A stretch of 20,000 nucleotides of DNA from an uncultured Ignavibacteriales bacterium (GCA_964611355.1 CAZSYD010000011.1:45078-65077); one strand, 5' to 3'. Shown: positions 256-15,729, counted from the stretch's first letter. Notes: generated from the sequence alone by a model not told the origin. Translations and numbers: made by a program.

Positions 256-2391
256 ATGACAAAGCAGGTAATCTCTCCTGTTTGGTGGCTGATACTGATT
301 GCTCTGGCGGTCAAAACGGGGTATTTGCTCTTTGGCTTGCCGGAGCCGTCGTCGCCGGAAGCTCTATCCGTAGATGCTCTGTATCATTACCGCTGGGCTT
401 CTCTTATTGCATCGGGCGATATATTCGCCAACGCGCCCTATTTCAGGGCTCCCCTGTATCCATTCATTCTGGCTTTTCTACTGAAGGTTTCCGGAAACAG
501 CCTGATTTTTGTCCGAATCATACAACTGCTTGCCGGGTGTCTCACGCTGCTTTTTACCTACTGGTTGGCCGAGAAAATATCAAACCGGAGAATCGCCGCC
601 ATTGCCCTTATCATATTACTTCTTTACCCGGTGATGACCTTTTTTGAGGGAGAACTGCTTCTTGATTCGCTCTTTTCGCTTCTCGCCCTGATATCGCTTT
701 ATTATCTCGTCCCCGATAACAACCGTAACAACAGACCTATTTTGGCCGGTCTGTTTTTCGCTCTGGCGGCTTTGACCCGTCCGGTTGTACTTGTCTTTGT
801 CCCGATTGTATTAATCTATTTACTCTGTCGGGGAAAACGCGAGGAGAAATACGGAAACGGCCTCCGAGCCGCGGCGGCGTTTTTGTTCATAACCGTTATG
901 GTCATCGCGCCGGTAACGCTGGTTAATTATATCCGCTCGGATCAGTTCATTCTTGTTTCGTATCAAGGAGGCGTAAACTTTTTTATCGGCAATAATCCGG
1001 ATGCCGACGGTCTTTCAGCCAGCCTTCCGCCGGTCGGGCGTGACTGGAGTCTCGATGATGCCGCTTACTTCGCTTTTAAGGATACCGGCCATAGAATCCT
1101 GCATGCGGAACAATCGCGGCATTGGTACTTGAAGGGGATAAAATATATTTATTCCGACCCATCAGGGTTTATCAGACTTTTCGCAAAAAAATTCTATTTC
1201 CTATTTTCCGGACACGAGATTTCCAACAACCTGCCGCTTAAGGAGGCCGTCTTTGATAATGGTTTTTTGAAATGGCTGCCTGTCAGGTTATCTCTCTTGC
1301 TTTCTCTGGCCGTTCTGCCCCTCTTTTTCTATCGCAAAGATACAAGCCGATATCTTTTCTTATACTCCATCGTTTTGATTTACGGATTGACCGTTTCGTT
1401 CTTCTTTGTCACTTCGCGCTTTCGTCTGCCGTTAATCCCCGTCCTTGCTATTTTAGCCGCCATTGGCCTGGTCTCGATATATGAAGCTATACGATCCGGG
1501 CGGATTGGTTACCGCTTTTTCTGGGGCCTTATCTTCGCCGGAGGTATATATATCCTTGCCGGAGCCGGCCTTTATCAAGATTCGTCTTCCAATCCGCAAT
1601 ACGCCATGTTTCTCAGGGGAAATCGTTCTCTCCGACAGGGTAATTACGAAGGTGCTGTCGCCTGTTTTGACAGCCTATCCCGCACGAAACCGTATTTCAA
1701 GAACACCTACCTTAACCTCGGCATCGCCAATCTCAAACTGGGAAATACCGGTGCCGCCATTGAGGCCTTTCGAAGCGAGCTTGGCTGCAACCGCGCCTCC
1801 GCCGAGGCATATAATAACATTGGCGTAATTTCCCTGCTGCAAAGGCAGTATGATTCGGCCGCTGCCTGCTGCGAAAAAGCGTTGGATATCAAGCCGTATT
1901 ATACGGAAGCGGCGGTGAATTACCTGCGCTCCGCCGCAGGCATTACCGGCCCGGAACAACTGGACTCAGTGGAGATCAAGAGACGCAGTCTCAGGCTGTT
2001 TTTTGACGCCAGTCCGGTCTATCTCGTAGAAGAAGCTTTATATTTTACTAAAAACAGGCGATACGCCGAGGCCATCAATAACCATTTGAGGGTCATTGAA
2101 ATCATTCGCCAACACAAACCGTCAGTTTCATTCGAATCGAAATTCAGCGTGCATGCATCTCATAGTCATGATAATCTTCTCAGGCTCGCCTGTTATCAAT
2201 TGGGATATCTCTATGGCCTGATCGGCGAATACGAGAAATCGATTCAATTTTCCCAACGCGCGATTGAACTTGCCCCCAATATGAAAGATGCTTACATAAA
2301 TCTTATTTCCGCTTATCATTCAATCGGGGACCGCCGCCGAGCGGATTCGGTCATGGCGGTTTATCGTTCAATCTGGCCGGGCGACTTCTAA
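256..2391 (+). CDS. GT-C fold (ArnT/PMT, GT39/GT83-like) membrane glycosyltransferase with C-terminal TPR repeats
   Basis: 711-aa ORF with many hydrophobic helices in the first ~440 aa. Motifs DALYHYRWA, RAPLYPFILA, ALAALTRP, GGVNFFIGNNPDADG and RFRLPLIP. C-terminal TPRs (YLNLGIANLKLGNTGAAIEAF, AYNNIGVI, YQLGYLYGLIGEYEKSI). Confidence 0.8.
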   Translation: MTKQVISPVWWLILIALAVKTGYLLFGLPEPSSPEALSVDALYHYRWASLIASGDIFANAPYFRAPLYPFILAFLLKVSGNSLIFVRIIQLLAGCLTLLFTYWLAEKISNRRIAAIALIILLLYPVMTFFEGELLLDSLFSLLALISLYYLVPDNNRNNRPILAGLFFALAALTRPVVLVFVPIVLIYLLCRGKREEKYGNGLRAAAAFLFITVMVIAPVTLVNYIRSDQFILVSYQGGVNFFIGNNPDADGLSASLPPVGRDWSLDDAAYFAFKDTGHRILHAEQSRHWYLKGIKYIYSDPSGFIRLFAKKFYFLFSGHEISNNLPLKEAVFDNGFLKWLPVRLSLLLSLAVLPLFFYRKDTSRYLFLYSIVLIYGLTVSFFFVTSRFRLPLIPVLAILAAIGLVSIYEAIRSGRIGYRFFWGLIFAGGIYILAGAGLYQDSSSNPQYAMFLRGNRSLRQGNYEGAVACFDSLSRTKPYFKNTYLNLGIANLKLGNTGAAIEAFRSELGCNRASAEAYNNIGVISLLQRQYDSAAACCEKALDIKPYYTEAAVNYLRSAAGITGPEQLDSVEIKRRSLRLFFDASPVYLVEEALYFTKNRRYAEAINNHLRVIEIIRQHKPSVSFESKFSVHASHSHDNLLRLACYQLGYLYGLIGEYEKSIQFSQRAIELAPNMKDAYINLISAYHSIGDRRRADSVMAVYRSIWPGDF

Positions 2392-2481: not shown

Positions 2482-4683
2482 CTAATCCTTGTCTCGCACC
2501 ACCGGAGGATCAATAGCGATGCCCAGTTGCTGCAACAACTCGGGATGCTGTTGCGCCTCCTGTTCCACCCTTTCAAAATAATCCCTGATTTTCTGGTGGC
2601 GCTCAGCCAGGTTGTCCGCGGCGGAACCTTTGGCGAATATTCCCGGGGTTACTTTCGCCGCTCCCTGAGAACTCAGCCACTTGTTCGTCAACCAGCCCAA
2701 AACAGAGGTAAACAACTGCTGGGTTTGGGCCGAGTCGGTAGCGATCGGCGTAAAGGTAACTGCAACCGATCTCAGATCGCCAATCGACTGGGCCACGCCC
2801 ATGACCTGACCGTTCAGAAGAGAAAGGGTTCCGTGTTTGGAGTGGTACAGATAAACCGCCGTGGCATTGCTGGTCCTCGTTCCCGCTCCAACCTCAGGCA
2901 TGGCATCCAAAAACAGTGTGTCAACGAAAGGAATCTGTCGGAAGTATTTATTCTTGTCCAATAGGTAATATCGTTCCGTCAAGTAATCGACGTTAATATC
3001 TATATCCGGGAATATCTCCGGGACAAGAGAATAACATCCAATAAACTGCTGGTTCCAGACAGGTGGCTTATGGGGGGGCCGCACGACATTACCCAAACAA
3101 TCATACAACCAGCCTTCATGGTATATATGCGTCATACCGAAGTGTTCCGCGAAATCAGCCGAAAGCTCATAAATTCCCGGTAGCTTATCCTGGTTACCAT
3201 CTGCAAGATTGCGGCCCATAAACCACCCCGAAGATCCCATATCCATAGCAAAATAAACATGGCCCAAAAGACCAAAGGTCATGTTTTCCTCTGGTCCACC
3301 CTGAGCATCGTCATTATAGAAAAGCTGAACCTTATGCGACAGGAGATCGACCAGGTTGGGTTTTACGCTACCCCATTTCGGCGGCCCGATGTATTCTTCG
3401 TATGGCCTTGTAGTAAGAGAGAAATAATCGGTGGTAACCTCAGGCGGATACCCTCCCTGCTCCACGACGTAATCAAATCTGGAGAACGTATCAAAAGGAG
3501 TATAGGCTCCAGAGTGGATGTCATCCAGGGCGGCATTTATATAATTTTGGAAAATCCCTTTCACCAACTGCAGGCTGTCCGGGTACCACCGGCCGGCCAC
3601 CTTGGTGTAATAGGTCTCATCATACACAGCCACATCCCGTTCAAACAACGCCTCGAGCACAAGAAATTGGCTGAAAGCCGGCGAGGGATCAGGAATAAAG
3701 CCGTCGTCACGGGAGCGAACCCAGAAGATGAATTTGAACTGGGTGGTTTTGGTAAGACTTTCCAAATCCTTGAAAACGTCATAAATAGTGACTTCCTCGT
3801 CCGTTACCCAGACGTCCGTGGAATCCGTATCATATTGGGGGCCTTCCGAATGCACAAGCGGCTGCGGAAGATCGCCAACCGCCGTCGGAAGAGCATCCAG
3901 ATCAAGAACCTGAACATCGATGCAACTGGTGAAGGAATCGGCGCTAGGGTCCCAAACGCAATTTTCTTTGGCTATATTAACGAAAATCTTCGCGGTATCG
4001 GGAAATGGTCCATATAGGCGCCATTCGAATTCCAAAGGCGGTATCGCTCGACCCCAGTCGGTCGAATCGGCGCCGCTCCAGACAACCTGAATACCGGGCG
4101 CCGGAGATTTGTCATCCTTGGCATTGATATAAACCCGGTTGCCGCGGTGGTGAGTATTGGGGTAATGGTTATTCCGGGAATACCGCCGCCATTTCATATC
4201 CGACAGGGCGCCCAGGTTATCCTGTGCCTGTATGAAGAAATACTGGTTAATAAAGGAATCAACCGGGTAATCGACATCAGCATACAATCGTACGGTGGCT
4301 GTTGACTGGGGATGATCAAGATCAACAGGCCGGTATTTCCAGCCAAACTGATCGTCGGTGGCTTGATCGGCAAAAACCTCAACCGAAACCCGCTGACCGT
4401 TTATCGTCAGCAGCGACTCTACCACAACAGCGTACCGGAAAAAAGAGATAAAACCGTCGATGTCAGTCGCATACCAGTTCAAATCCGGATTGCGTGAAAA
4501 CTGGGCGCCGTCCGGGGGCGTATTGGCGATATATACTATGGGTTTCTGATTTTCAAAAGCAGTGCCCGATCGATCCGGCCCGCATCCGACAAAGACTGCC
4601 ACGAGCAACAGGACCGAAACAGGTAAAAAGATAAGAATCTTTTGGGCCGAGAACATATTTTTTCCTTCCGCAGTCGTTGTCAT
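2482..4683 (-). CDS. large putative lipoprotein of unknown function with two Ig/FN3-like modules
   Basis: 733-aa ORF with GAGGAG upstream of ATG 4683 (an alternative start at MFSAQK is possible). Hydrophobic signal ends in lipobox-like FVG|C. Two similar modules: WYATDIDG...FFIQAQDNLG and WSGADSTD...FWVRSRDDG. Confidence 0.7.
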   Translation of the reverse strand: MTTTAEGKNMFSAQKILIFLPVSVLLLVAVFVGCGPDRSGTAFENQKPIVYIANTPPDGAQFSRNPDLNWYATDIDGFISFFRYAVVVESLLTINGQRVSVEVFADQATDDQFGWKYRPVDLDHPQSTATVRLYADVDYPVDSFINQYFFIQAQDNLGALSDMKWRRYSRNNHYPNTHHRGNRVYINAKDDKSPAPGIQVVWSGADSTDWGRAIPPLEFEWRLYGPFPDTAKIFVNIAKENCVWDPSADSFTSCIDVQVLDLDALPTAVGDLPQPLVHSEGPQYDTDSTDVWVTDEEVTIYDVFKDLESLTKTTQFKFIFWVRSRDDGFIPDPSPAFSQFLVLEALFERDVAVYDETYYTKVAGRWYPDSLQLVKGIFQNYINAALDDIHSGAYTPFDTFSRFDYVVEQGGYPPEVTTDYFSLTTRPYEEYIGPPKWGSVKPNLVDLLSHKVQLFYNDDAQGGPEENMTFGLLGHVYFAMDMGSSGWFMGRNLADGNQDKLPGIYELSADFAEHFGMTHIYHEGWLYDCLGNVVRPPHKPPVWNQQFIGCYSLVPEIFPDIDINVDYLTERYYLLDKNKYFRQIPFVDTLFLDAMPEVGAGTRTSNATAVYLYHSKHGTLSLLNGQVMGVAQSIGDLRSVAVTFTPIATDSAQTQQLFTSVLGWLTNKWLSSQGAAKVTPGIFAKGSAADNLAERHQKIRDYFERVEQEAQQHPELLQQLGIAIDPPVVRDKD

Positions 4684-4693
4684 GACTTACTCC

Positions 4694-5656
4694 TCAAAAG
4701 GCTACACCAAATGAAAACCGGTGAATTTCACGCAAAAAGCCGAAATCCTGGTATCCATAATCTATTCTTATCTCACTGGCTTCTCCGAGCGGCCATTTCA
4801 AACCGGCCCCGGCAGTGAAACCATCGGAATCGTAATTAAAACGGTTGCCAACTCGCACCGAGAATCGATCAAGATACCAGTACTCCAAGCCGGCGTTGTA
4901 GGTTTCGAGATTGTCCGACGGATGCGCGCCCTCGACGCACAGGGTCGCCAGATTATCGGGACTCTCAACAAGATTGAAAGAGCCGCCGAACTTGAAATTC
5001 ATCGGCAACGAGTACGTTTGCTGTATCATCTTCAAATCAGGACCGAAATTGACAATGCTGATGGCGATCTTGAATCCCCGATACCCGGTGTCATACAGCG
5101 TACCCACATCAGCCGCCCAGCCCTGAGCCGATTCCGTATCATAAAACTCGCCGATATATTTCAATGTGCCGCCGACGGAGAAATGCTCGGTCAGACTTCG
5201 AGCCACACTGACCGAAAAGGCGAAATCATAAGCCCTGAAAAATTCGCCTGTCCCCTCAGGATGAGAGTGGGTGGTTAAGGGTATGTCACCGCTATTGAGA
5301 AAATAAAAACCCAGCCCAAGGACGCCGGCATACTCCTCAAGAGGAAAGGCGATTCCGGCAAACTCATAGGCGATGTCGGCCGGATAATCGACATGAGTAA
5401 ACATCGCCTCATTGCCGAAAAGCTGGGTAAGACCGGCCGGATTATAATATATAGCCGACACATCATTAGCCATAGCGAGATATGCCCCGGCCATGCCTGT
5501 CGCTCGGGCTGAAACACCTATATCGAGGAACTTAGCGCCGGTCGTGGCGACCTTCGCCTGACCATATGCACCGGAAGGCAACTGGACTGCCAACACCGCG
5601 GCCAGAAACAAAAGCAGCACCCATCGTCCTGTCAAAAACTTCTTTATGCCTGACAT
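4694..5656 (-). CDS. PorV/PorQ (UPF0164)-family outer-membrane beta-barrel protein
   Basis: Signal peptide followed by the characteristic FLDIGVSARATGMAGAYLAMANDVSAIYYNPAGL, amphipathic beta strands and C-terminal Phe (FGVAF). Start moved from the track's 5674 to ATG 5656 (MSGIKK), 7 nt after GGGAG. Confidence 0.8.
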   Translation of the reverse strand: MSGIKKFLTGRWVLLLFLAAVLAVQLPSGAYGQAKVATTGAKFLDIGVSARATGMAGAYLAMANDVSAIYYNPAGLTQLFGNEAMFTHVDYPADIAYEFAGIAFPLEEYAGVLGLGFYFLNSGDIPLTTHSHPEGTGEFFRAYDFAFSVSVARSLTEHFSVGGTLKYIGEFYDTESAQGWAADVGTLYDTGYRGFKIAISIVNFGPDLKMIQQTYSLPMNFKFGGSFNLVESPDNLATLCVEGAHPSDNLETYNAGLEYWYLDRFSVRVGNRFNYDSDGFTAGAGLKWPLGEASEIRIDYGYQDFGFLREIHRFSFGVAF

Positions 5657-5713
5657 TTGCATGCTCCCATTCAATCTATTTCCAAGGGCGTGTTTTCATG
5701 GTTTATGAACTCA

Positions 5714-8700
5714 TCAAAATTGTAATCCCAAACCGAGAATAATCTGACGACCACGGCCCCAGCGACCCGGGTTGGCCTGGCGTTCGGTACCGCCGCCGAC
5801 GATGCCCGACTGATTGTTGTCGGTGTCCGGAAGACCCGTGGTGGAGTAAACTGACAGAACATTCTTATTATCAAAGAGATTCTTGACCCAGGCCTTGAAA
5901 GTCCAATCCATTCCCGAAATGCGGAATCGCTTATGTAACTTAACATCAGTAAAGGCGGTTGACGGGAGCCGCATCGAGTTTTTCATCGGCTTCTCGCCGA
6001 CATCAAGCGTTATACCGGGAAAACTCTTGTCGGGAGTGAAAGGGAAACCGGTCTGAAAACGCCAGTAAATCGACATATCCCAATCATTCGGTATGGAAAT
6101 ACCAAACACCCTGGGATGATCCCGATCGGTAAAATAAAATTGCAACCAGAGCGAGACGCGATGGCGGATATCCCAATCAAGCGGGTTTTCATCGATGGAA
6201 ATCTCATCCTGCGCCAGCAAACGCTCATAGTTTTCCGAATCGGAGGAGGATTTACCGTATGCAAACAAATACTCATAACTAAGGGTACCGTTGACAAACC
6301 GCGACGCCTTTCGCTCCAGTTCCATCTCGACGCCACGGACACGAGCGTAGTCGGTGTTATCATAGTACGAAAAAGCGCTTGCCCCCTGACCATATACCGA
6401 AGTCGCGATAATATCAAAGTAATCCTTGTAAAAACCGGATAGCTTCATTGAATATTCATCAGTGAAAGCGAAGTTGACGCCGAAAGTATAGTTAACCGTC
6501 TTGGTGTAATCAAGGTTGGGATTGCCGACCAGATTAACTGACCCGCTGCCGAACGGGTTGGCATTTCGGTACATCTTGGCATAACTGGGCAACTCATAGA
6601 AATGGCCGTAGTTGAATCGGATCATGGCCCTTTCCGAGATCGGGTAGTTGATTGACACCCGCGGTGAAAGCTTGTCTCGGATATCCGTTAATTTGCTACC
6701 GGTGATATCCTGGACGGTGGAAACACCTTTCAGGTCGGACTGAAGGAAAATGTCGGCGCGCAACCCCAGCGAGGCCACCAGCGAACCATACTCAATCTTG
6801 TCGCGCAAGTACACGACCAGAACCTTGGGCTCACGCTTGTAGAAATCCCGAATCGTCCCGCGTCCAAAGTACGGATTAGCATTGTAAGGGAGACTGTCGG
6901 GTTCGTTGCTGTACTGCTGCAAACGCTGAATGGCCATCACGCTGATATCCTCCCGCCGGAATTCAAGACCGGCTTTTATCTCTTGCGCGCGACCAATGGC
7001 TTTCTTAAAGTTGCCCTTTAATGTATATTTATCGACCTTCTCCTCCGTCCAAACATTGGTATATCCACCCTGCTCGAAACCGTACAGGAGAAAAGCGGTG
7101 CCGTTATCCCCTCCCTGGTCATGACGGCCGTTCTTGTTTATGTCGACAAACGGTTCGCCGGGATCATATCTGTTATTCGGCGCATCATAAACGCCGTTGC
7201 CGTTGTAATCGATGTAGGGAATGCCGGGTTCCCAATAATTCCGGCCGGGCGAAGTGTATTTGTTGTCCCGATTGAAGTCCTGATTGGGAGGAGTATTCAG
7301 CGCCGTCACAAAACGATCAACACCGGGATCATATATACCATTACCATTGATGTCCGTAAACGGCTCGCCCAGCGAGGAGTCGCCGTCAATATACGGCTCC
7401 TCACGGGAGGTGACAAACGGAGTAGTGACATCCTGATATTCACTATCGAAGGTATTGTTGCCGTTAACGTCTCTGGTCAGGCGATCCCCTATGTCCCAGA
7501 TGCCGTTACCGTTAAGATCGGCAAAAGGCTCACCTTCGAATTGGTCCATTATCCCGTTATTGTTCAGGTCGAAAAACGGATACCAGTAACCTCCTATCTG
7601 GGCGTCTTCCGAAATCCAGACGTCGCCTCCGTTACGAAAAGGAACATATATACTCCCCCAACTGACCGAATCGGGGAAAATATGCAAATGCGGTTCAGCT
7701 TCGTCAAACTGGTTATTGCCATTGAGATCATCATAGGTTTCGTATTCATCAATAAACAGGAACTGGTCCGGGTTGAGGCCTTCTCCGGGATGTTCCGGAT
7801 CACCCGGTTTCTGCGTATAGCGGGAACCCCAATACGAAAAGTTGACTTCATAGTCGGTTGATTTGGAAAGAACCTGCTTAAGCTGCAGCGAAACGGTATT
7901 AGTACTGTAATCATAAATCGGCGCCGTAGCCGGTGTATAGCGATAAACCCACCAAAAGTCGGTTTCATGCCGCCAACTGCCCTTGTACAGAGCTTTGGCT
8001 TTTATGTTGCTTGTGGGGGTAAAAGCCAGCGTGAAATCGAGGTTATAAAGGTTGTTCTGCCGATCCGGAATATGGATGCCCAGAATATCCATTCCCGAAT
8101 ACGTCTTCCGCGTGGCCGGTGTGTTATACCGCGAATACGGATTGCCGGTATCCTGCTTCACCGCCCGGCTGTACAGGTAGAAAGTGAAATCCTTACCTTC
8201 GAAATAATTGATCCCCACGGCCGGAAGAATACGACTTGTCAGGACCGGATCAGGTCCGCTGATGCTGAATTCAAGTTGATCATAATTTTCCGAATACTTA
8301 TTAAGGTTTTCAGCTCCAAAATCGTCCGTATAATACTCTAGCCGAGATCTGGTTTTTGCGGGTGAGCCTTCCGGAGAAGTAATCTTAACAACACCGGAAA
8401 GCGCCTCTCCGTACTCGGGATCAAAACCATCTTTGATAACCTGCAACTCAAGAACCGCCGAGGAAGAGATGTTAATACCGGCATCGACCGGGGCGCGTCC
8501 CCCGAGAGGATCCGAATAGTTCACGCCGTCAACCAGGTATGTCGTTTCGCCGCGACGGCCGCCGCGGATATGTAATTCACCCTCAGCATCCGTGGTTATA
8601 CCGGTCTCGCGCGCAAGGAGATCACCCACGCTGGCCACCGGGGCGATCTGGATTTCTTTTTGCGTCTTAATCGATACCGTACCGGTCACATTAACGTCGA

Positions 8701-9088
8701 TTCCCTTGCGGGTACCTGTAACGACAGTCACCTTGCCGGTTTCAATCACGGTCTGCTTCATTTGGATATTAATCTCCGAAGTCTGGTCAGTATTGACCTC
8801 GACGTCTTCCACCAGAACCGATTCATATGACAGCAATGTCACCTTGAGATTGCAAGTACCGGGTTGAACTGACAGGATGATGTAGTTTCCATCGATGTCA
8901 GTCTTGGCCCCGATATTGGTCCCCTCAATCTGAACCGATACGCCAAACTTCGGTTCGCCGGTATTCTTGTCAGTGATGGTTCCTTTTATCCGCCCGACCT
9001 CGGCGGAAAACACCGAGCCGGCCGTCAGCAACAGCGTTACCGTCAAAACAAGGGCAAAAAACGCCGTCTTTGGAACTCGGCTAAACAT
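5714..9088 (-). CDS. TonB-dependent receptor with N-terminal carboxypeptidase-regulatory-like domain, plug, and an inserted Asp/Asn-rich repeat region
   Basis: Signal peptide, GRIKGTITDKNTGEP domain, plug motif LHIRGGRRGETTYLVDG, barrel motifs LSPRVSINYP, RFNYGHFYELP, GNPNLDYTKT and VKNLFD, and C-terminal LGLQF. Start set at ATG 9088 after GAGGAGG (the track gives 9175). Confidence 0.88.
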   Translation of the reverse strand: MFSRVPKTAFFALVLTVTLLLTAGSVFSAEVGRIKGTITDKNTGEPKFGVSVQIEGTNIGAKTDIDGNYIILSVQPGTCNLKVTLLSYESVLVEDVEVNTDQTSEINIQMKQTVIETGKVTVVTGTRKGIDVNVTGTVSIKTQKEIQIAPVASVGDLLARETGITTDAEGELHIRGGRRGETTYLVDGVNYSDPLGGRAPVDAGINISSSAVLELQVIKDGFDPEYGEALSGVVKITSPEGSPAKTRSRLEYYTDDFGAENLNKYSENYDQLEFSISGPDPVLTSRILPAVGINYFEGKDFTFYLYSRAVKQDTGNPYSRYNTPATRKTYSGMDILGIHIPDRQNNLYNLDFTLAFTPTSNIKAKALYKGSWRHETDFWWVYRYTPATAPIYDYSTNTVSLQLKQVLSKSTDYEVNFSYWGSRYTQKPGDPEHPGEGLNPDQFLFIDEYETYDDLNGNNQFDEAEPHLHIFPDSVSWGSIYVPFRNGGDVWISEDAQIGGYWYPFFDLNNNGIMDQFEGEPFADLNGNGIWDIGDRLTRDVNGNNTFDSEYQDVTTPFVTSREEPYIDGDSSLGEPFTDINGNGIYDPGVDRFVTALNTPPNQDFNRDNKYTSPGRNYWEPGIPYIDYNGNGVYDAPNNRYDPGEPFVDINKNGRHDQGGDNGTAFLLYGFEQGGYTNVWTEEKVDKYTLKGNFKKAIGRAQEIKAGLEFRREDISVMAIQRLQQYSNEPDSLPYNANPYFGRGTIRDFYKREPKVLVVYLRDKIEYGSLVASLGLRADIFLQSDLKGVSTVQDITGSKLTDIRDKLSPRVSINYPISERAMIRFNYGHFYELPSYAKMYRNANPFGSGSVNLVGNPNLDYTKTVNYTFGVNFAFTDEYSMKLSGFYKDYFDIIATSVYGQGASAFSYYDNTDYARVRGVEMELERKASRFVNGTLSYEYLFAYGKSSSDSENYERLLAQDEISIDENPLDWDIRHRVSLWLQFYFTDRDHPRVFGISIPNDWDMSIYWRFQTGFPFTPDKSFPGITLDVGEKPMKNSMRLPSTAFTDVKLHKRFRISGMDWTFKAWVKNLFDNKNVLSVYSTTGLPDTDNNQSGIVGGGTERQANPGRWGRGRQIILGLGLQF
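7119..7729 (-). repeat. eight DxNxNGxxD-type (EF-hand-loop-like) peptide repeats inside the TonB receptor
   Basis: DLNGNNQFD, DLNNNGIMD, DLNGNGIWD, DVNGNNTFD, DINGNGIYD, DFNRDNKYT, DYNGNGVYD and DINKNGRHD, three of them preceded by GEPFx. Confidence 0.85.
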
Positions 9089-9267
9089 AACCTTACCCTC
9101 CTCGCTGGGACAGCTATATCTATTTACTTTGGTGTGAGGGATATCAACCCGTCGAAAAAAAATTCTATTCAACAAACCCCGGCAACCAAACCTTTCTAAA
9201 CCTTAAAACAGCCGCTAACCTGTCCACCCTGTCCCGTACGGTCTATCGAAGGCCGCTTAGACCTAAG

Positions 9268-9297
9268 ATAATACGATATTTCGCTGCCTGCCGTCAA
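9268..9297 (-). promoter_or_regulatory. putative sigma70-type promoter for the TonB receptor operon (TTGACG-N18-TATTAT)
   Basis: On the minus strand, TTGACG at 9297-9292 and TATTAT at 9273-9268. This implies a leader of about 170 nt. Confidence 0.5.
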
Positions 9298-9369
9298 GTG
9301 GTTTTTTGCCCTTTTCGCCACCTCGCACATCATTAAGACTAACATGGCAACATGATTGTTCAACTAATT

Positions 9370-10140
9370 TTAGGCCAAAGACAAATTTTTAAAATGGATT
9401 TCCCGCCGCCTGATAACCGTCAATTCCGAATTTGAGAACCGTTCCGGCGATAATTGAATCTCCAGGGTCTTTTCAAACGCCCTGACCAATACCTCTGACA
9501 GCTCTTCCCGACTCCCGGGCAAAATGGGAATCACGGCCTTTTTTGTTTTCCAAGGCTCCTGTAAAATGGCCGGATGGCTGCAAGGAGCGGCTATTTTAAT
9601 TGCGCCGTGCTGCAAAAGAGCCCTGCGGCCGCGACGCTGCGACCCGGCGGCCACTTTCTGCCCTCCGACAATAATTTCGTACCGCGATACCGCCGCAAAA
9701 CACCCCTTCTGAAGCGCCTGTGACCCGGACAATCTTACCGGGTTATCTCCTCTCGAAAATGATGCTTTCCACCCAATCATTTCATAAAACATGACTATCG
9801 CCTGTGATATTATGCGATAGCTGTCGCTAAGACTTTTCCCCAGAACGGGATAGCGAATAAAATTGCCGGCCACCGCATAGGTCAGTTCGTCATCGTCATG
9901 TAGTAGCGCCCGCCCGCCGGTAACCCGCCGTATAACCGGCATACCGCCGAGTTTGCCCGTATCAACCGCCCGATCAAATTCCTGGTGATAACCGATAGTA
10001 ATCGCCGGCTCGCTCCATCCGTAAATCCGCAATATCGGAACCGATTCCCCCGACTCCGCGATATCCGGCAGACAGGCATCCGCCGCCATATTGAACGACG
10101 GCGACCTCTTTTCATACGGTATCAACCGACAGGTCTCCAC
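9370..10140 (-). CDS. lipoate-protein ligase A family / LipM-like octanoyltransferase
   Basis: Motifs FNMAADACL, ILRIYGWSEPAITIGYHQ, VIRRVTGGRALLHDDDELTY, CF, KVAAGSQRR and LLQHGAI. Single catalytic domain with no LplA C-terminal domain. Start is GTG 10140 or TTG 10146. Confidence 0.88.
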   Translation of the reverse strand: METCRLIPYEKRSPSFNMAADACLPDIAESGESVPILRIYGWSEPAITIGYHQEFDRAVDTGKLGGMPVIRRVTGGRALLHDDDELTYAVAGNFIRYPVLGKSLSDSYRIISQAIVMFYEMIGWKASFSRGDNPVRLSGSQALQKGCFAAVSRYEIIVGGQKVAAGSQRRGRRALLQHGAIKIAAPCSHPAILQEPWKTKKAVIPILPGSREELSEVLVRAFEKTLEIQLSPERFSNSELTVIRRREIHFKNLSLA

Positions 10141-10146
10141 CAACAA

Positions 10147-10175
10147 ATTATAAAGGATTTATTGAAGGAAGTAAA
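10147..10175 (-). promoter_or_regulatory. putative sigma70-type promoter (TTTACT-N17-TATAAT) for the lipoate ligase gene
   Basis: Perfect TATAAT at 10152-10147 and TTTACT at 10175-10170, just downstream of the upstream gene's terminator. Confidence 0.55.
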
Positions 10176-10186
10176 TCCGGAGCGGT

Positions 10187-10215
10187 AAAAATAAAACGCC
10201 GCCGTCAGGGCGGCG
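10187..10215 (-). terminator. intrinsic terminator after the sigma54 activator gene
   Basis: The minus strand reads CGCCGCC-ctgac-GGCGGCG-TTTTATTTTT, about 30 nt after the stop at 10248. Confidence 0.85.
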
Positions 10216-10247
10216 CGATGGATACGGATTATTATCCGGACACGCGA

Positions 10248-13184
10248 TTAGTTTATACTATTAAGCCGTTTGGGATTAATGCCATACTGCTTCAGCTTCA
10301 GACGCAACGTGGATTCCGGGATATTCAGGGAGTCGGCGGCCCTCTTTTTTACACCTCCCTGTTCCTTCAAGGCCTTGATAATAAACCGTTTCTCGTATTC
10401 CGCCAGGTAATTGTAAAGCGAAAATCCGTCCCTGGTATAGAAAGCCATCTCATCCGGACCATCTTCGATATTGGCTTTCCCTTCCCCAAGAATCCTCGAT
10501 GACAAAAGCGAGGGGTTTATAGTTCCCTCGTTATTAGCCAGAAGAACCAGCTTCTTGATTTCATTTTCCAATTCCCGGACGTTCCCCGGCCAATCCCAAT
10601 CAATCAAATATTTCAAAGTATCGGGCGAAATTCGGCATTTGCTGCCCGACAGGAAATGATCTACAAGAAGCGGTATATCCTCTTTGCGATCTTTCAGTGA
10701 TGGAATCGTGAAATTAAGAGCGCACAAGCGGTAATAAAGATCGCTGCGAAATCGTTTCTCTTCCATTTCCACTTTGAGGATTTTATTGGTTGCGGAAATG
10801 ACTCGAACATCAACCTTGCGTGGCCTGGTATCGCCCAGCCGGGTTATTTCCTGATTCTCCAAGACCCGTAACAACTTAGCCTGAATGGACTGCGGCATAT
10901 CGGCGATTTCATCCAGGAAGAATGTTCCCCCGTCGGCTTCTTCGAACAGACCCGGTTTATCCCGGTCGGCTCCGGTGAATGCACCCCTCTTATATCCGAA
11001 AAGTTCCGATTCCAGAAGCGATTCTGGAAGAGCCGCGCAATTGACCGATATGAAACGCTTGCCGCGACGGTTTGAATTATAATGAATCGCCTTGGCCAGA
11101 AGGTCCTTGCCGGTGCCTGTTTCCCCGCTGATCGAGATCGGCATGTTGGAATCAGCCACCTGCCTGACCCTCGACAACATTTCCATGAATGGTCGCGATT
11201 GAGTAATAATATTCGGAAAAACGCATCGTTCCATAAGTTGGGCTTTAAGACGATAATTATCTTCGAGCAGTTTCTCTTTCTGATATTCGGAAGTTTTGAA
11301 CGCTACCAGATCAGCAAAACCGACCGCAAAATCAATTTCTCTTTGCGAGAAAGGATTAAATCCGCTGCCATTATCGTTTGCCATTCGGTCAAGATAAATG
11401 TAACCGACAACATTGCGTCCAAGAATAAGAGGCAAAATCAGCAGGCTGGCGGCCTGGCTCGAGCCGGTCGACAGCAGGTCGACGAAATCGGCGTCATTAG
11501 TACAGTCAAGCGCCAGGGTAGGAACATCCGATGCCACCCGGTCTTTTAAAAGTCCATCGAACCTTTTCATTACGTCGTCGAAGTCCTTTTCATCCAATGC
11601 GTGGGCAGCCGATATTTCCGACCTTTGACCCTGCACCGTATTGACGATAAAACCCCTGTCTGCCGCTGTTCTTTTGATCAGGACTTCAAACAAAACCTCA
11701 AGCGGTCCGTTCTTCAAATTTTTGTAGTCGGAACCGGATATGATTTTTCCAAATATCTTGAATTCATTATCCCGGGACAGGGCTTTATTAATGGCGCTTT
11801 CCGACAAAGCCCGCAGAAACTCGTTGGCTTTATTGACCCCCGCCGGGTCACCGACGGATCGGAAACCGTTGACTGCCTTTTTAAGATATTCCAGAGCTTC
11901 ACCGTTCCTGCCGGCGCGATGCCATAGACGGCCCATTTCAAATTGACATCCGGCCACGTAAAAAGCACTGCCTAACCGCTCAAACAGTTTCTCGCCTTCC
12001 CGCAGCAAAGAGACGGCTTCCCGATTATCGTAACTCGAGTCGGCCAGCGCAATCTGACCGTAAGCGATAATCGAACGTCCCAGTTCGTAATTGTCTCCTG
12101 TCTGACGAAGGATTTCAATACCCTGCAGGCTGTACCGGCGGGCATCCGCGATCTCATCACGGGCCAGAAATCCCCGCGCTATTACCCGATGGGCAAGCCC
12201 AATCTCAGCCTTCTCGCCGATCTTTTGCGCCAGATCGAGCGATACCTGGGCCAGACGCATAGCATTGTCGTTATGGTTAAGTTCGAGTTCGACCTCGGCC
12301 AGCCGCCGCATAGATTGACTAAGGAGAGCCGATTCCGGGGCCATACTTTTTCCGATTTCAATGGCCTGTTCGAGGAACTTTCTAGCGGTGACATAATCCT
12401 GTTTTTCGAAAGCCAGTTCGCCCTGATATTCCAGGCAGATAGCCAGTTCCCGCTTAAGATGGTTTTTATCTATAACCTCTCTTGCCGAGTTAAGCTCGGA
12501 TTCAGCCATATGGAATTGCCGGCGACGAAGATACAGGTAACCAAGCGACAGATGATCGGCAGCCAGTAAATGCGGCAGATTTTGTGCACGGCTTATATTA
12601 AATGAAAGACGAAGATTTTCCTCGGCTTTATCCATTTCTCCGGTCAGCAGGTAGATTCGCCCGAGATTCCCCAATAACTGCACCTTTTTGACCGGGTCGC
12701 AGGCGGCATACGGAATAGCATCGCTGACGTATTCGGCCGCCCTCACATATTCGGATTGTATATAACAGATTCGGCCCAGCGCGTTATAGGCGTCAACAAT
12801 ACCGAAATCATCCTTAGCTCTGCGGAAAGACGCCAGCGCATCGCCGGCTGCGACCTGAGCCGGTTTTAGTTCCCCACAAGCAACATGCGCCTTATAGAGC
12901 AAAAGCTGCAGGTGGCCGATCCGGCTATTAAGGTTTGTCGAGGCCAGAATGTCGAATGCCTGACGGCATAAGGTAATGGCCAATTTATACTCATTTTGAA
13001 AAACAGCCTTCCTGGCATGAAGAAGGGAATATAGCCCCTTATTAACCCCTCCAGGGTTATATCCTTCCTTTTCCAACCCCTTCAGGGCCGATACGGCTCG
13101 CTCCGGATCCCTCTGGTGAAAGTATTCCTCTATTTTAAGCAGCCGGGCATCCAGCCCTTTCGATTTTCGTGAGGTTCGGTTCAT
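10248..13184 (-). CDS. sigma54-dependent enhancer-binding protein: TPR array, GAF-like domain, AAA+ domain and Fis-type HTH
   Basis: Walker [24 protein letters not shown] (intact GAFTGA at 10968-10985), Walker [26 protein letters not shown] and [27 protein letters not shown]. About 460 aa of N-terminal TPR-like helices, then a GAF-like segment ([20 protein letters not shown]...FSQREIDF). Confidence 0.93.
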
Positions 13185-13253
13185 AACCCTTCCGTCTTGA
13201 AGTTAGTTACTCTCCGGTAAAATATCCGTATAGCTGTTTCGGTCTTGACCGAA

Positions 13254-13571
13254 TTACTCCCTCGAAAAAACGGATTCCACGGGATCGGACACCGGATTTA
13301 CCTGGTTCGCATTATAGTCGATGGCGTCATAAAGCAGATTCCACCAGAATAGTGATGACCCGAAGGTCGTAGTTCCAGAACCCAACCCATCCTCGCCACC
13401 GTCATAGTCACCGTTGTTATTATTACCAATCGGCGAACCGATAGTATCGAAATCATCCCAGACAGGATCTTCGGCCCACGGATGTTCGGCCGCGGTTATG
13501 GGAGTAAGGAAAAAACCAACCCCGATAATGATGGCAAGGATTAGAAACCCGAGTAGTTTCGATACCCTCAT
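13254..13571 (-). CDS. small secreted acidic protein or peptide precursor (105 aa)
   Basis: Strong SD (AGGAGGT, 13585-13579) and a Sec-type signal MRVSKLLGFLILAIIIGVGFFLTPITAA. The mature part is acidic and Gly/Asn-rich with 4 Trp and no Lys or Cys. Confidence 0.75.
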   Translation of the reverse strand: MRVSKLLGFLILAIIIGVGFFLTPITAAEHPWAEDPVWDDFDTIGSPIGNNNNGDYDGGEDGLGSGTTTFGSSLFWWNLLYDAIDYNANQVNPVSDPVESVFSRE

Positions 13572-13670
13572 GGTATCAACCTCCTCTTAGGTTCAAAGCA
13601 AAATGCTTCCAAATAAGGATACCGATATACAAATCGATCTGCCTTCTTATCGCAGCTTTTGCTTTACTAT

Positions 13671-13699
13671 AACTTACACAATGACAATAAAATTGTCAA
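13671..13699 (-). promoter_or_regulatory. putative sigma70-type promoter (TTGACA-N17-TAAGTT) overlapped by the palindrome TGACAAT-aaa-ATTGTCA
   Basis: Perfect -35 TTGACA at 13699-13694 and -10-like TAAGTT at 13676-13671. The inverted repeat spans 13682-13698. Confidence 0.6.
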
Positions 13700-13810
13700 G
13701 CTTTTTTTGATATTTCGCATTATCTGCGACAGAAAAACCGCATTCATAAGGGAAAAATCGTGATTCGCATTCCAAAACGCCGTATATGATACCTTTGCAC
13801 CGATATTCAC

Positions 13811-13839
13811 TTGATTTTCGACAAAAAAGCGTTTATGTT
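13811..13839 (+). promoter_or_regulatory. putative sigma70-type promoter for the aldolase-fol-pan operon (TTGATT-N17-TATGTT)
   Basis: TTGATT at 13811-13816, TATGTT at 13834-13839 and GGAG at 13849-13852 before ATG 13863. Confidence 0.5.
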
Positions 13840-13862
13840 GCCATATCCGGAGTGTGATCCCA

Positions 13863-14522
13863 ATGCCGATATCCTCGTTAGTTGCCAAAAAAATAGTTTT
13901 TTTCGGAAAGCGTCTCTACGCCCGGGGATTGATTGCCGGAGGGGACGGCAATATCTCGGCAAGAATTGGTTCGGACCGAATCATGATTACACCGTCAGGT
14001 GTTTGCAAGGGGTTTTTATCGCCCGACGATCTGGTAATAATCGACGGGCAAGGCCGTCATTTGAGCGGCAGGAATAAGGCTTCCTCGGAATCTGCGATGC
14101 ACTTACATATATATCAAAAACGCAGCGATATCGCCGTTTGTGTTCATGCTCATCCGCCATATGCGACCGCCTTCGCCGTGGCCGGAATACCGCTTTCCGA
14201 AAAAGTCCTGCCTGAGGTTGTTATATTTGTCGGCGATATCCCGCTTACCGATTATGCACCCCCGGGAACCGAGCTCGTTGCCCGCTCACTGGACAAGTAT
14301 ATCGCCGACCACAATGCTTTTCTCCTTAAGAATCACGGCCTGGTAACGGTCGGGCGGACATTTGAAGAAGCTTACAACCGTATGGAAACCATCGAGCATT
14401 TCGCCCGGATATTGCTTCTTGCCCGGCAACTGGGAAATGTAGACTATTTGGACGGCGAGGAAATAGCACGACTCGAAAAAATAAGACAGCAGATACCCCG
14501 CAACACGGACAAAATGGGTTAA
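13863..14522 (+). CDS. class II aldolase/adducin family protein (FucA/MtnB-like)
   Basis: Motifs GLIAGGDGNISAR, ITPSG, SSESAMHLHIY and Zn-binding HAHPPYATAF and LKNHG. ATG 13863 is preferred over the track's GTG 13854. Confidence 0.9.
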   Translation: MPISSLVAKKIVFFGKRLYARGLIAGGDGNISARIGSDRIMITPSGVCKGFLSPDDLVIIDGQGRHLSGRNKASSESAMHLHIYQKRSDIAVCVHAHPPYATAFAVAGIPLSEKVLPEVVIFVGDIPLTDYAPPGTELVARSLDKYIADHNAFLLKNHGLVTVGRTFEEAYNRMETIEHFARILLLARQLGNVDYLDGEEIARLEKIRQQIPRNTDKMG

Positions 14523-14553
14523 GGCTGATGAGACAGCCGCCCGGGAATCGATT

Positions 14554-15729
14554 ATGATAAAGAAATTAATGCTGGAAAAAGCCGACAGGCTCTACCATCT
14601 GCCGCCGGTTCTTGATGAATTCCTGCCCAAAAGGGAACGAAAAAAAATGCTGGGCCGCGAAGTGCTCGACCTGGCCCGATTTCAATGGCCCGCCGACGGC
14701 CAAAAGGAGTCATACAATAACGATTCCCTACCCGCTGCCGGCGACGAAATCCTCGGACTGGCCGAGGAAACCGCGGCCTGGTATCATGATCGGTTTGGCG
14801 TAAAAATCAACCCGGCCAAAGAGATCATTATCGGCGGATCGGTTCGTCAGATTCTGGGCTTGTTTTCACTGGCCTTTTTCAATCCGGGCGATATTATCCT
14901 GATTCCCGATCCCGGCATCTGGCATTATCGCGCCGCAGCCGCACTGGCCTCGGCGGAAACGGTTCCTTACCACCTGAGTGAAAGAAATCGCTTCAAGCCG
15001 GCGCTAAATACGATTTCCGGTAACCTGGCCCGAACGGCCAAGGCTATGTTCCTCAACTCGCCCCATAATCCCACCGGCGCCGTGCCGGCAGGGGAAGAAC
15101 TGAGAGAGATCCTGCGTATGGCGGCGCGTGAAAATCTTCTCCTGATAATGGACCACGTTTTTGAAGGACTTATCGACGGCAACGATTCGACTTCTTTGTA
15201 TGCTCTCCCGGGAGGAAGAAAAGCCGCTCTGGAACTGTATTCATACGCCTATAATTTCGGTCAGACTCTCCCCTCTGTCGGCTTTGCCGTGGGGCAACCG
15301 GCTATCATTACCGGGCTAAAAAAGATAATATCCGCGTTTGGTTACATCGCTACCAAATGTCAAATCAGAGCAGGCCTGAGCGCCTGCGATGACCCGAAAT
15401 CCGGTTTGGAAAAAATCCGCAGCCGATTCGCCGGCAATCGTGAAATGCTCGACCGGCTCTGCAAAAAGATACGCCTGATACCAGCCGAATATCGTTCCGG
15501 ACCGTTTTACTGGGCGAAGTTGCCGGGTCGGAAACAGTCACATCGTTTCTGCCGCCTACTATACTTAAAATGCGGAATACTGGCTGTCCCCGGTATCGCC
15601 TTCGGGGAAAACGGCGAGGGATATATACGGTTTTCATTAACCGGACGGACGGACAATTATCAAAAAGCTCTGGAGGCCACGGGGAAACTGTTTCAGACAA
15701 CCAGCGAAAGGAAAACGGTCAATGGATAG
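14554..15729 (+). CDS. class I/II aminotransferase-fold protein (DapL/AspC-like), apparently lacking the PLP-binding lysine
   Basis: Retains NPGDIILIPDP, LNSPHNPTG, PGIAFGENGEGYIRFSL and GFAVG. The SxSK..GWRxG motif reads SYAYNFGQTLPSVG. Confidence 0.8.
   Translation: MIKKLMLEKADRLYHLPPVLDEFLPKRERKKMLGREVLDLARFQWPADGQKESYNNDSLPAAGDEILGLAEETAAWYHDRFGVKINPAKEIIIGGSVRQILGLFSLAFFNPGDIILIPDPGIWHYRAAAALASAETVPYHLSERNRFKPALNTISGNLARTAKAMFLNSPHNPTGAVPAGEELREILRMAARENLLLIMDHVFEGLIDGNDSTSLYALPGGRKAALELYSYAYNFGQTLPSVGFAVGQPAIITGLKKIISAFGYIATKCQIRAGLSACDDPKSGLEKIRSRFAGNREMLDRLCKKIRLIPAEYRSGPFYWAKLPGRKQSHRFCRLLYLKCGILAVPGIAFGENGEGYIRFSLTGRTDNYQKALEATGKLFQTTSERKTVNG

Follow-up and report, generated by a model that had tools for sequence, protein, structure and literature searches.

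A predicted exported tryptophan-motif protein paired with a TPR-bearing sigma-54 activator: a candidate signal-and-receptor cassette of Zixibacteria

Can the gene of a small exported protein, lying directly in front of a transcription activator with a tetratricopeptide repeat (TPR) array, be the gene of that activator's signal? The question is raised by a 20,000-nucleotide (nt) stretch of DNA labelled as an uncultured Ignavibacteriales bacterium (GCA_964611355.1, CAZSYD010000011.1:45078-65077; hereafter, the window), in which an open reading frame (ORF) of 105 amino acids (aa) is followed by that of a 978-aa sigma-54 activator. The two genes make up a conserved cassette of the candidate phylum Zixibacteria. 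We put at slightly below an even chance the reading that they are a cognate signal and sensor, in which a short acidic Trp motif of the small protein would be sensed by the TPR array and the output would pass through a DNA palindrome and small RNAs (sRNAs).

The preliminary description of the window, made from its sequence, proved correct at every point that could be checked. Both genes lie on the same strand (coordinates in Table 1), separated by 69 nt, and scans for ORFs and terminators in the window gave a strong terminator behind the activator and no terminator-like site between the genes, just as had been described. The strong ribosome-binding site and Sec signal ascribed to the small ORF are likewise present: GAGGAGG stands 8 nt ahead of the ATG, and the product begins with MRVSK, about 22 uncharged residues and a small-residue site, followed by A-A-E-H-P-W-A-E-D-P-V-W-D-D. 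The signal peptide was called by rules (K/R start, uncharged run, small residue). Neither Pfam nor NCBIfam assigned the small protein to a family, and the ESM Atlas gave no usable match. A word-based search for protein homologues returned just two matches (99% and 76% identity), which may be put down to the fast evolution of the small protein, for which such a search is too insensitive; six-frame genome searches did recover orthologues.

The pairing of the two genes is far beyond chance. Public relatives of the N-terminal part of the activator are nearly all assigned to Candidatus Zixiibacteriota, candidate division Zixibacteria or the FCB group, and some carry automatic 'uncultured Ignavibacteriales' labels. 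A full-length orthologue of the N-terminal 650 aa, with 33-61% identity, was found in 41/41 genomes of the order, and at E<=1e-60 this part was matched in 247 of 285 genomes of the phylum, four families giving no match at that threshold (0/3, 0/10, 0/14 and 0/5 genomes). Among 39 loci, comprising the window and the DNA around 38 orthologues (genomes G020 and G023 were left out), every one has a same-strand ORF of 91-124 aa located 16-147 nt upstream of the activator; each such ORF is preceded by GGAGG, starts rich in K/R, continues with a long run of uncharged residues and bears the motif. Public sequences provided 80 loci, 75 of them with at least 330 nt upstream, and the small ORF is present in all 75: 68 were recognized by a strict script and seven by eye, the latter having variant motifs (E-H-A-W-D, E-G-P-F-D, A-H-S-W-D-E) or having been missed by the script's filter. 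The relatives' set and the public set overlap in genomes. Other neighbours vary by family (one family has an Fe-S protein there, another a CBS/CorC protein), and the pair alone is kept. The proposal that homologous activators always have a small signal-peptide ORF of the HPW type beside them is, therefore, borne out phylum-wide.

Within the small protein, conservation is concentrated in the motif. In an alignment of 37 sequences (A1), P31 and W32, together with M1, are the sole invariant positions and the C-terminal halves align poorly; identity to the window's small protein outside the motif goes down to 10-39%, while the activator stays at 33-67%. Motif statistics were taken from 82 distinct orthologues, selected for P-W and pooled from the relatives' and public loci. 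Lys or Arg occurs within residues 2-8 in 81 of the 82, the uncharged run of the signal region has a median of 22 residues, and a small residue (S/G/A/T) occupies position -5 from the Trp in 70, which fits signal-peptidase cleavage just ahead of G/D-E-H-P-W. Position -3 is Glu in 59 sequences and position -2 is His in 52, Asn in 11, Asp in 11, Gly in 4, Tyr in 3 and Gln in 1, and the Trp is followed by Asp at +1 in 72/82 and by Asp or Glu at +3 in 72/82. From the motif onward the median net charge is -8; by the positive-inside rule, the acidic mature part of the small protein would lie outside the cytoplasm.

The strongest argument for a link between motif and TPR array comes from paralogous cassettes. 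The genome of the window (G000) contains about 18 sigma-54 AAA+ loci, three of which have TPR N-termini. Besides the window's activator, these are proteins of 752 aa (contig C56) and 727 aa (contig C49) with a TPR-AAA+-helix-turn-helix (HTH) architecture lacking GAF, and each is preceded by a signal-peptide ORF with an acidic-x-P/G-W motif. The small ORFs of the paralogs were found by inspecting the DNA upstream of the TPR paralogs, and a loose motif scan of the genome matched the window's ORF only. With the window's small protein placed in group A, the paralogous loci of relatives make up groups B and C, in which a motif-bearing exported ORF is present at 20/20 loci and at 16/16 loci with a TPR match, respectively (four more fetched group C pieces held no TPR match and stand outside the count). 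The group B motif, [DE][DE][HQ]PWGG, is located 10-25 residues past the signal peptide, while that of group C is at the extreme C-terminus in 7/16 loci and occurs twice in one precursor (L150); in addition, two group C loci have tandem small ORFs. Apart from the signal peptide, all that the three families of small proteins have in common is the short acidic Trp motif, whose position shifts from the N- to the C-terminus, and the flavour of the motif tracks the TPR paralog class across the three cassettes per genome. A shared motif with a flavour that follows the receptor class suggests that the functional unit is the motif rather than a fold, and that the TPR array is where it belongs.

On the receptor side, Pfam assigned TPR_MalT and TPR_12 to the N-terminal array (69.9 bits for the TPR_MalT region), followed by a GAF domain with 24.6 bits, just over the cut-off of 22.4, Sigma54_activat at residues 659-824 (228.5 bits), AAA_lid_14 and HTH_8 (42.5 bits). 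No receiver domain (Response_reg) was matched by Pfam, and TPR-GAF occupies that place; GAFTGA, Walker A (GETGTGKD) and Walker B (DEIAD) are all legible in the translation, in agreement with the architecture first described. The protein falls under every NCBIfam equivalog cut-off. With an AAA+ domain carrying GAFTGA, a Fis-type HTH and rpoN in the genome (Sigma54_DBD, 199 bits, contig C3), it is by domain content a bona fide sigma-54 enhancer-binding protein.

The affinity of the TPR array was assessed with a profile from 32 orthologues searched against structures in the PDB. The nearest solved TPRs, both of the peptide-binding kind, are those of LGN/Pins (5e-16 to 1e-14) and kinesin light chains (4e-10 to 4e-7), followed by weaker matches to AfsR (2e-5), an archaeal TPR sensor (3e-5) and RapJ (3.9e-4), which ranks behind all of these except the archaeal sensor, for which no rank is given here, and behind designed TPRs as well. 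No RRNPP-specific Pfam family is among the matches of the activator, and these comparisons do not support a homology between its TPR domain and the RRNPP clade. Kinesin light chain TPRs, which have a TPR_12-type array like that of the activator, bind peptide motifs in which a Trp or Tyr is flanked by acidic residues, according to the parts of two sources drawn on here (PMC6214655, PMC5450233). Kinesin light chain is a eukaryotic motor adaptor with no function in common with the activator, and its ligand class may serve as a lead for the way in which an E-H-P-W-D peptide could be held, nothing more. A complex prediction with the TPR-GAF part (residues 1-640) and the mature small protein (residues 27-105) scored 0.01 against a mark of 0.32 and weighs neither way. 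At one locus (L047, G014:C17:22300-30400) the orthologous activator is matched as two pieces, residues 1-373 and 400-978, perhaps through a frameshift, a split gene or an assembly error.

What the activator might control is suggested first by the promoter of the cassette itself. The sigma70-type promoter claimed upstream of the small ORF is present as TTGACA-N17-TAAGTT, in an arrangement kept in relatives; a consensus promoter scan did not list it because TAAGTT matches only three of the six -10 positions. An operator-like palindrome (O1), TTGACA, 17 nt, TAAGTT, a half-palindrome (O2) and a leader of about 80 nt follow each other in this order in families f1, f3 and f4. Of the 39 orthologous upstream regions, 23 have a match of at least 9/10 to GCGCA-N5-TGCGC, where shuffles gave a mean of 0.15/39, and by eye an 8-base palindrome core precedes the -35 box everywhere except at two f2 loci. 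The O2 block, GAGCA-N5-CTGCGA, is the best conserved stretch of the leader (14/14 f1 sequences) and is also found in f3 and f4. Two sites flanking the -35 and -10 boxes of a sigma-70-type promoter suggest autoregulation. No canonical sigma-54 promoter was found upstream of the small ORF, the 13 regular-expression matches among the 39 loci being mostly the palindrome itself. The leader of the window (13596-13664, minus strand) folds into a long stem (z -3.5; 0/200 shuffles fold as well), and this structure is not conserved in 13 relatives, where only O2 and the ribosome site are kept; several f3 and f4 leaders hold instead a hairpin with a T-run, which could be an attenuator. At two group B cassettes (L141 in G021 and L144 in G034) the -35 box is immediately preceded by a GCA-N5-TGCG site that resembles the palindrome of group A, and such sites hint that one cassette may regulate another.

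Beyond the cassette, the exact palindrome TCGCA-N5-TGCGA leads to two sRNAs. Four exact sites were read in G000: O1, two on contig C23 that are 52 bp apart, and one on contig C34 near a looser second site. The two on C23 are followed by a GGCACG-N4-TTGT box and by sRNA1, for which a covariance model found 13/13 other f1 genomes, 0/5 of f2, 0/69 of f3 and, weakly, 1/33 of f4. In an alignment of 13 loci (12 relatives and G000), sRNA1 has compensatory changes in 13 of 28 predicted pairs and an invariant single-stranded GGAGAGGAGG stretch, with the two palindromes ahead of it at all 13 aligned f1 loci and a GGCA-N6-TTG box at 11 of them. sRNA2, at the C34 site, has 48 consecutive bases that are identical in 13/13 f1 sequences and invariant across 10 genera, together with a terminator stem that co-varies; its palindromes are at fixed positions in 13/13 f1 loci, where a GGCA-N6-TTG box was read by eye. 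In f2-f4, the palindrome lies about 110 nt ahead of the box in 16/16 loci, and a script read the box as GGCA-N6-TTG in 15 of these, the 16th being a canonical GG-N10-GC. sRNA2 is present as a single copy in 107 of the 121 genomes searched in the order and in 113 of the 151 searched in the phylum. The searched genomes of the four families without an activator match lack it (0/14), and every family with sRNA2 also has the activator. Rfam gave no match for sRNA1, noise only for sRNA2 and nothing in positions 9000-15000 of the window. Judged by base identity and covariation, both sRNAs are shown to be real as conserved structures.

Possible targets of the sRNAs were also considered. The duplex energy of sRNA1 with the cassette leaders gave z of about 0. 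The leaders of group B (L129-L148 and L170) carry a C-rich box of the CCCCACCTC type some 55-90 nt ahead of the small ORF, and this box is complementary to the invariant GAGGUGGGGA of sRNA2; at least eight Watson-Crick pairs are reached in 6/20 of these leaders and a duplex z below -2 in 10/20, mostly of f1, while 0/39 group A leaders reach eight pairs. This complementarity may reflect cross-talk between cassettes. In addition, CsrA is encoded in the genome (G000:C9:16610-16762, plus strand, 80.9 bits) and both sRNAs are rich in GGA motifs, which makes titration of CsrA one possible mode of action.

The palindrome could be attributed to the activator through its Fis-type HTH, as the recognition helix IPESTLRLK is identical in 32/32 activator orthologues and differs in both paralogs. 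In one relative (G003), all three exact palindromes are at the cassette promoter or the upstream sites of sRNA1, and in two others (G002 and G011) the same three places are found among 10 and 8 sites, respectively. We infer that this activator binds the palindrome, regulates its own cassette and drives both sRNAs.

Taken together, the pair might function as follows. The small protein would be made with a Sec signal peptide and exported, and its acidic-His-Pro-Trp-acidic motif would be recognized by the TPR array of the cytoplasmic activator, most likely after a short motif peptide has been released by proteolysis and taken up again, with an OPT-family transporter as one candidate for the way in. 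Assembly of the AAA+ ring would be controlled by the occupancy of the array, plus whatever the GAF domain binds. The activator would bind TCGCA-N5-TGCGA by its invariant Fis-type helix and, from paired upstream palindromes, would drive the sigma-54-like promoters of the two structured sRNAs. Export, processing, re-import, binding of the motif by the TPR array and the role of the activator as the palindrome binder are all steps that we infer from sequence patterns. A wider proposal, that Zixibacteria possess peptide signalling of RRNPP logic in a diderm, with three orthogonal channels of precursor and TPR activator of which at least one feeds sigma-54-dependent sRNAs as LuxO feeds Qrr, seems to us rather unlikely, albeit worth stating.

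Several observations weigh against the signal-and-sensor reading, some of them concerning its output. With about 18 sigma-54 activators in the genome, another one could be the palindrome binder. Families f8, f13, f14 and f15 have an activator match and sRNA2 in 1/17 only, and two relatives, G009 with three exact palindromes and G012 with none, have no exact site at the cassette or sRNA1 loci, only variants. Moreover, at the sRNA promoter loci read for it (L173-L185, L188-L200 and L202-L217), the -12 element is TTG[T/A] and not the canonical TTGC, except at L215 (GC); either the sigma-54 of this lineage tolerates the variant or these promoters are of a special class. A genome-wide listing of GG-N10-GC boxes combined with palindromes gave no target, because the real boxes are without the canonical C.

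The return of the signal is a further difficulty, since a cytoplasmic activator and an exported small protein require a route back. Family-5 binding proteins (Opp-type, SBP_bac_5) in the genome remain below the cut-off (26.5 and 25 bits against 32.4), and a PTR2 transporter was not found there. As possible routes back, the genome does encode an OPT oligopeptide transporter (325 bits) and CstA, neither of them linked to the cassette itself. The OPT gene is located 1.6-2.7 kb from the sRNA1 upstream sites, in divergent orientation, in G000 and in 5/5 f1 relatives tested, a synteny that is at most suggestive. Two proteins with type IX secretion C-terminal sorting domains are encoded between OPT and the sRNA1 sites in G000. 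As an alternative to re-import, the activator may meet the precursor before export, with which the spacing of the group B frames and the invariance of the motif would agree.

The small protein might in that case be a secretion-coupled anti-activator, comparable to FlgM, ExsE or NifL: unexported precursor would bind the TPR array and hold the activator off (or on), Sec export would remove the precursor, and what the activator reads out would be how protein export or the envelope is faring instead of cell density. We consider this improbable, with a chance that is nonetheless real. The small gene comes first in the operon, and in group B its stop is 2-12 nt from the activator start or the frames overlap by 4 nt (20/20 loci), as for partners made in fixed proportion; frames so close together are better suited to a stoichiometric protein partner than to a diffusible signal and count against the latter. 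In group A the motif stands directly behind the signal peptide and would, therefore, be the first mature segment to emerge. Furthermore, the motif is almost invariant across the phylum, unlike the diversifying peptides of known pheromone systems, and so carries no strain-specific 'dialects', which together with the missing clear Opp importer again suits an anti-activator better than a re-imported signal. What tells against the anti-activator is the signal peptide itself, as a long hydrophobic core favours co-translational targeting in model bacteria and the median of 22 residues would leave little precursor in the cytoplasm; the C-terminal and duplicated motifs of group C also fit released peptides better.

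A role without direct contact has to be weighed as well: the small protein would be an envelope or extracellular effector, such as an acidic protein active on membranes or binding to surfaces, co-expressed with its regulator, and TPR and GAF would sense something else. Operons of a regulator and one target gene are common, and MalT-type TPR arrays can have small molecules or other proteins as ligands. The small proteins hold their length at 87-128 aa and have a second hydrophobic or aromatic stretch, which a mere peptide precursor would not need and which fits an effector. This reading, to which we likewise allow only a minor chance, does not readily explain why three paralogous activator families each kept their own motif ORF over the order or phylum while neighbours changed, and a short acidic Trp motif of mobile position, as the only shared element, is hard to square with a shared effector fold. 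Very unlikely is a translational monitoring substrate or leader comparable to SecM, MifM and VemP, in which export-dependent stalling would set translation of the activator. A signal-peptide ORF directly upstream of the regulated gene, with short gaps, is what such a leader would look like; the group A gaps vary (16-147 nt), the N-terminal motif is what is conserved, and the reading was rejected as there is no conserved C-terminal arrest segment and no conserved RNA structure in the intergenic region or leader. Cleavage after the small residue at -5 would place His at mature residue 3 in many orthologues, and a mature X-X-His could be an ATCUN-type copper or nickel site of a metal-responsive cassette. 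This was also rejected and is scarcely credible, since the His is present in only 52/82 and groups B and C carry the motif internally or at the C-terminus.

Returning to the signal-and-sensor reading, its closest parallel in logic is the RRNPP(A) group, described for Bacillota and their mobile elements in the parts used here of PMC10075063 and PMC9765709, with pair features also taken from part of PMC11343458. Like Rap-Phr, NprR-NprX, PlcR-PapR, AimR-AimP and Rgg-SHP, the cassette has a putative cytoplasmic TPR receptor beside the gene of a small precursor predicted to be exported, several paralogous cassettes per genome, and a C-terminal or repeated motif in some precursors. Unlike them, it belongs to a diderm candidate phylum, and its output is a sigma-54 AAA+ protein with a C-terminal Fis-type HTH, whereas RRNPP proteins have an XRE-type HTH or are phosphatases. 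The precursor gene is located upstream, the precursors have about 100 aa, the motif is phylum-wide rather than diversified, and the TPR array has about 420 residues and is of the LGN/kinesin-light-chain kind by sequence. The RRNPP-like interpretation offered in the preliminary description is, hence, partly supported: adjacency, paralogs and motif placement speak for it, while TPR homology (RapJ, 3.9e-4), effector module, gene order and motif dialects do not, and the anti-activator that it named beside the signal precursor stays a live alternative.

For the output, LuxO is the nearest comparison, being the sigma-54 activator that drives the Qrr small RNAs in Vibrio quorum sensing, as stated in the parts drawn on of 10.1101/2021.07.01.450815, PMC8043402 and PMC4878744. 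Both systems have a sigma-54 activator, more than one sRNA (as inferred targets in the present case) with upstream palindromes, and the same sites at the activator's own promoter. LuxO is a response regulator at the end of a phosphorelay from membrane receptors of small-molecule autoinducers, whereas the Zixibacteria activator has TPR-GAF for a receiver, its candidate signal is a gene-encoded exported protein, and its RNAs are outside Rfam. In NifL-NifA, PspA-PspF and HrpV-HrpS, too, the AAA+ activity of the activator is governed by a partner whose gene lies with that of the activator or nearby. A GAF domain is found in NifA as well, and nifL and nifA are translationally coupled. The partners in these three systems are cytoplasmic or on the cytoplasmic face of the inner membrane, in contrast to the Zixibacteria partner with its cleavable-looking signal peptide and acidic, low-complexity mature part. 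MalT and other STAND proteins are similar in that a long TPR superhelix is the sensor of a transcription activator ATPase. MalT combines a STAND NTPase with a LuxR-type HTH and senses maltotriose, and it differs from the present activator in having no paired exported protein.

By its domains and gene arrangement, the cassette belongs to neither the RRNPP nor the LuxO family. In a literature search, mostly outside subscription journals, no account turned up of an exported protein that is paired with a TPR sigma-54 activator, and by analogy the cassette looks like an undescribed signal-and-receptor pair with RRNPP-like logic and a LuxO/Qrr-like output. If the Trp-motif protein is the ligand of the TPR array, cytoplasmic sensing beside a gene-encoded signal, so far a matter of Bacillota and mobile elements, would reach a diderm candidate phylum, and a novel type of input domain would be added to those of the sigma-54 activators. 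There would be, moreover, a directly testable circuit in an uncultured lineage, with precursor, receptor, DNA site and two RNA outputs all defined by sequence. Should the three-channel peptide-signalling proposal be true, it would represent a hybrid of two textbook quorum-sensing architectures in a phylum without a cultured model. The palindrome and the strongly conserved sRNA2 offer handles for reporter assays and for reading metatranscriptomes.

Table 1. Coordinates of the cassette, its regulatory elements and the associated loci; positions given without genome and contig are those of the window.
Feature	Location	Strand	Remark
Operator-like palindrome O1, TCGCA-N5-TGCGA	13715..13729	-	15 nt upstream of the -35 box
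-35 box TTGACA	13694..13699	-	CTTGACA conserved in f1, f3 and f4 loci
-10-like box TAAGTT, 17 nt past the -35 box	13671..13676	-	Assigned by position and conservation; relatives have TA..TT boxes with this spacing
Operator-like half-palindrome O2, AGCA-N5-TGCGA, at the inferred transcript start	13650..13664	-	
Shine-Dalgarno GAGGAGG of the small ORF	13580..13586	-	GGAGG invariant in the f1 alignment
Small exported protein (predicted), 105 aa, group A of the family	13254..13571	-	Pfam/NCBIfam match absent
Predicted Sec signal peptide, residues 1-28	13488..13571	-	Rule-based reading
Acidic Trp motif region E29-H-P-W-A-E-D-P-V-W-D-D40, proposed ligand element	13452..13487	-	P31 and W32 invariant among 37 aligned
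TPR-GAF-AAA+-HTH sigma-54 enhancer-binding protein, 978 aa	10248..13184	-	
TPR sensor array (putative), residues ~50-470	11775..13037	-	Pfam TPR_MalT and TPR_12
GAF domain, residues 500-628	11301..11687	-	Pfam GAF, E 3.9e-5
Sigma-54 interaction AAA+ with GAFTGA, and lid, residues 659-903	10476..11210	-	Pfam Sigma54_activat and AAA_lid_14
Fis-type HTH_8 DNA-binding domain, residues 927-967	10284..10406	-	Pfam HTH_8
Intrinsic terminator, end of the two-gene operon	10196..10216	-	8 pairs, 7 of them GC, then a T-run; directly 3' of the activator
Paralog cassette	G000:C56:4985-7641 (locus L170:686-3342)	+	Conserved in relatives
Paralog cassette	G000:C49:406-2920 (locus L171:107-2621)	-	Conserved in relatives
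sRNA1, ~105 nt	G000:C23:2319-2425, locus L172	-	Structured RNA ending in a terminator
sRNA2, ~85 nt	G000:C34:1793-1907, locus L187	-	Sigma-54-like box and palindromes upstream
OPT-family transporter	G000:C23:5187-6944, locus L218	+	

The neighbours of the cassette in the window (5714-10146 on the minus strand and 13854-15729 on the plus strand) are ordinary and not conserved with it; three more ORFs occupy 256..2391, 2482..4683 and 4694..5674. On its 3' side, the minus strand encodes a lipoate-protein ligase (9370..10146) and a TonB-dependent receptor with a carboxypeptidase-regulatory-like domain (5714..9175), while a class II aldolase and an aminotransferase are encoded divergently from the cassette in the plus-strand region.

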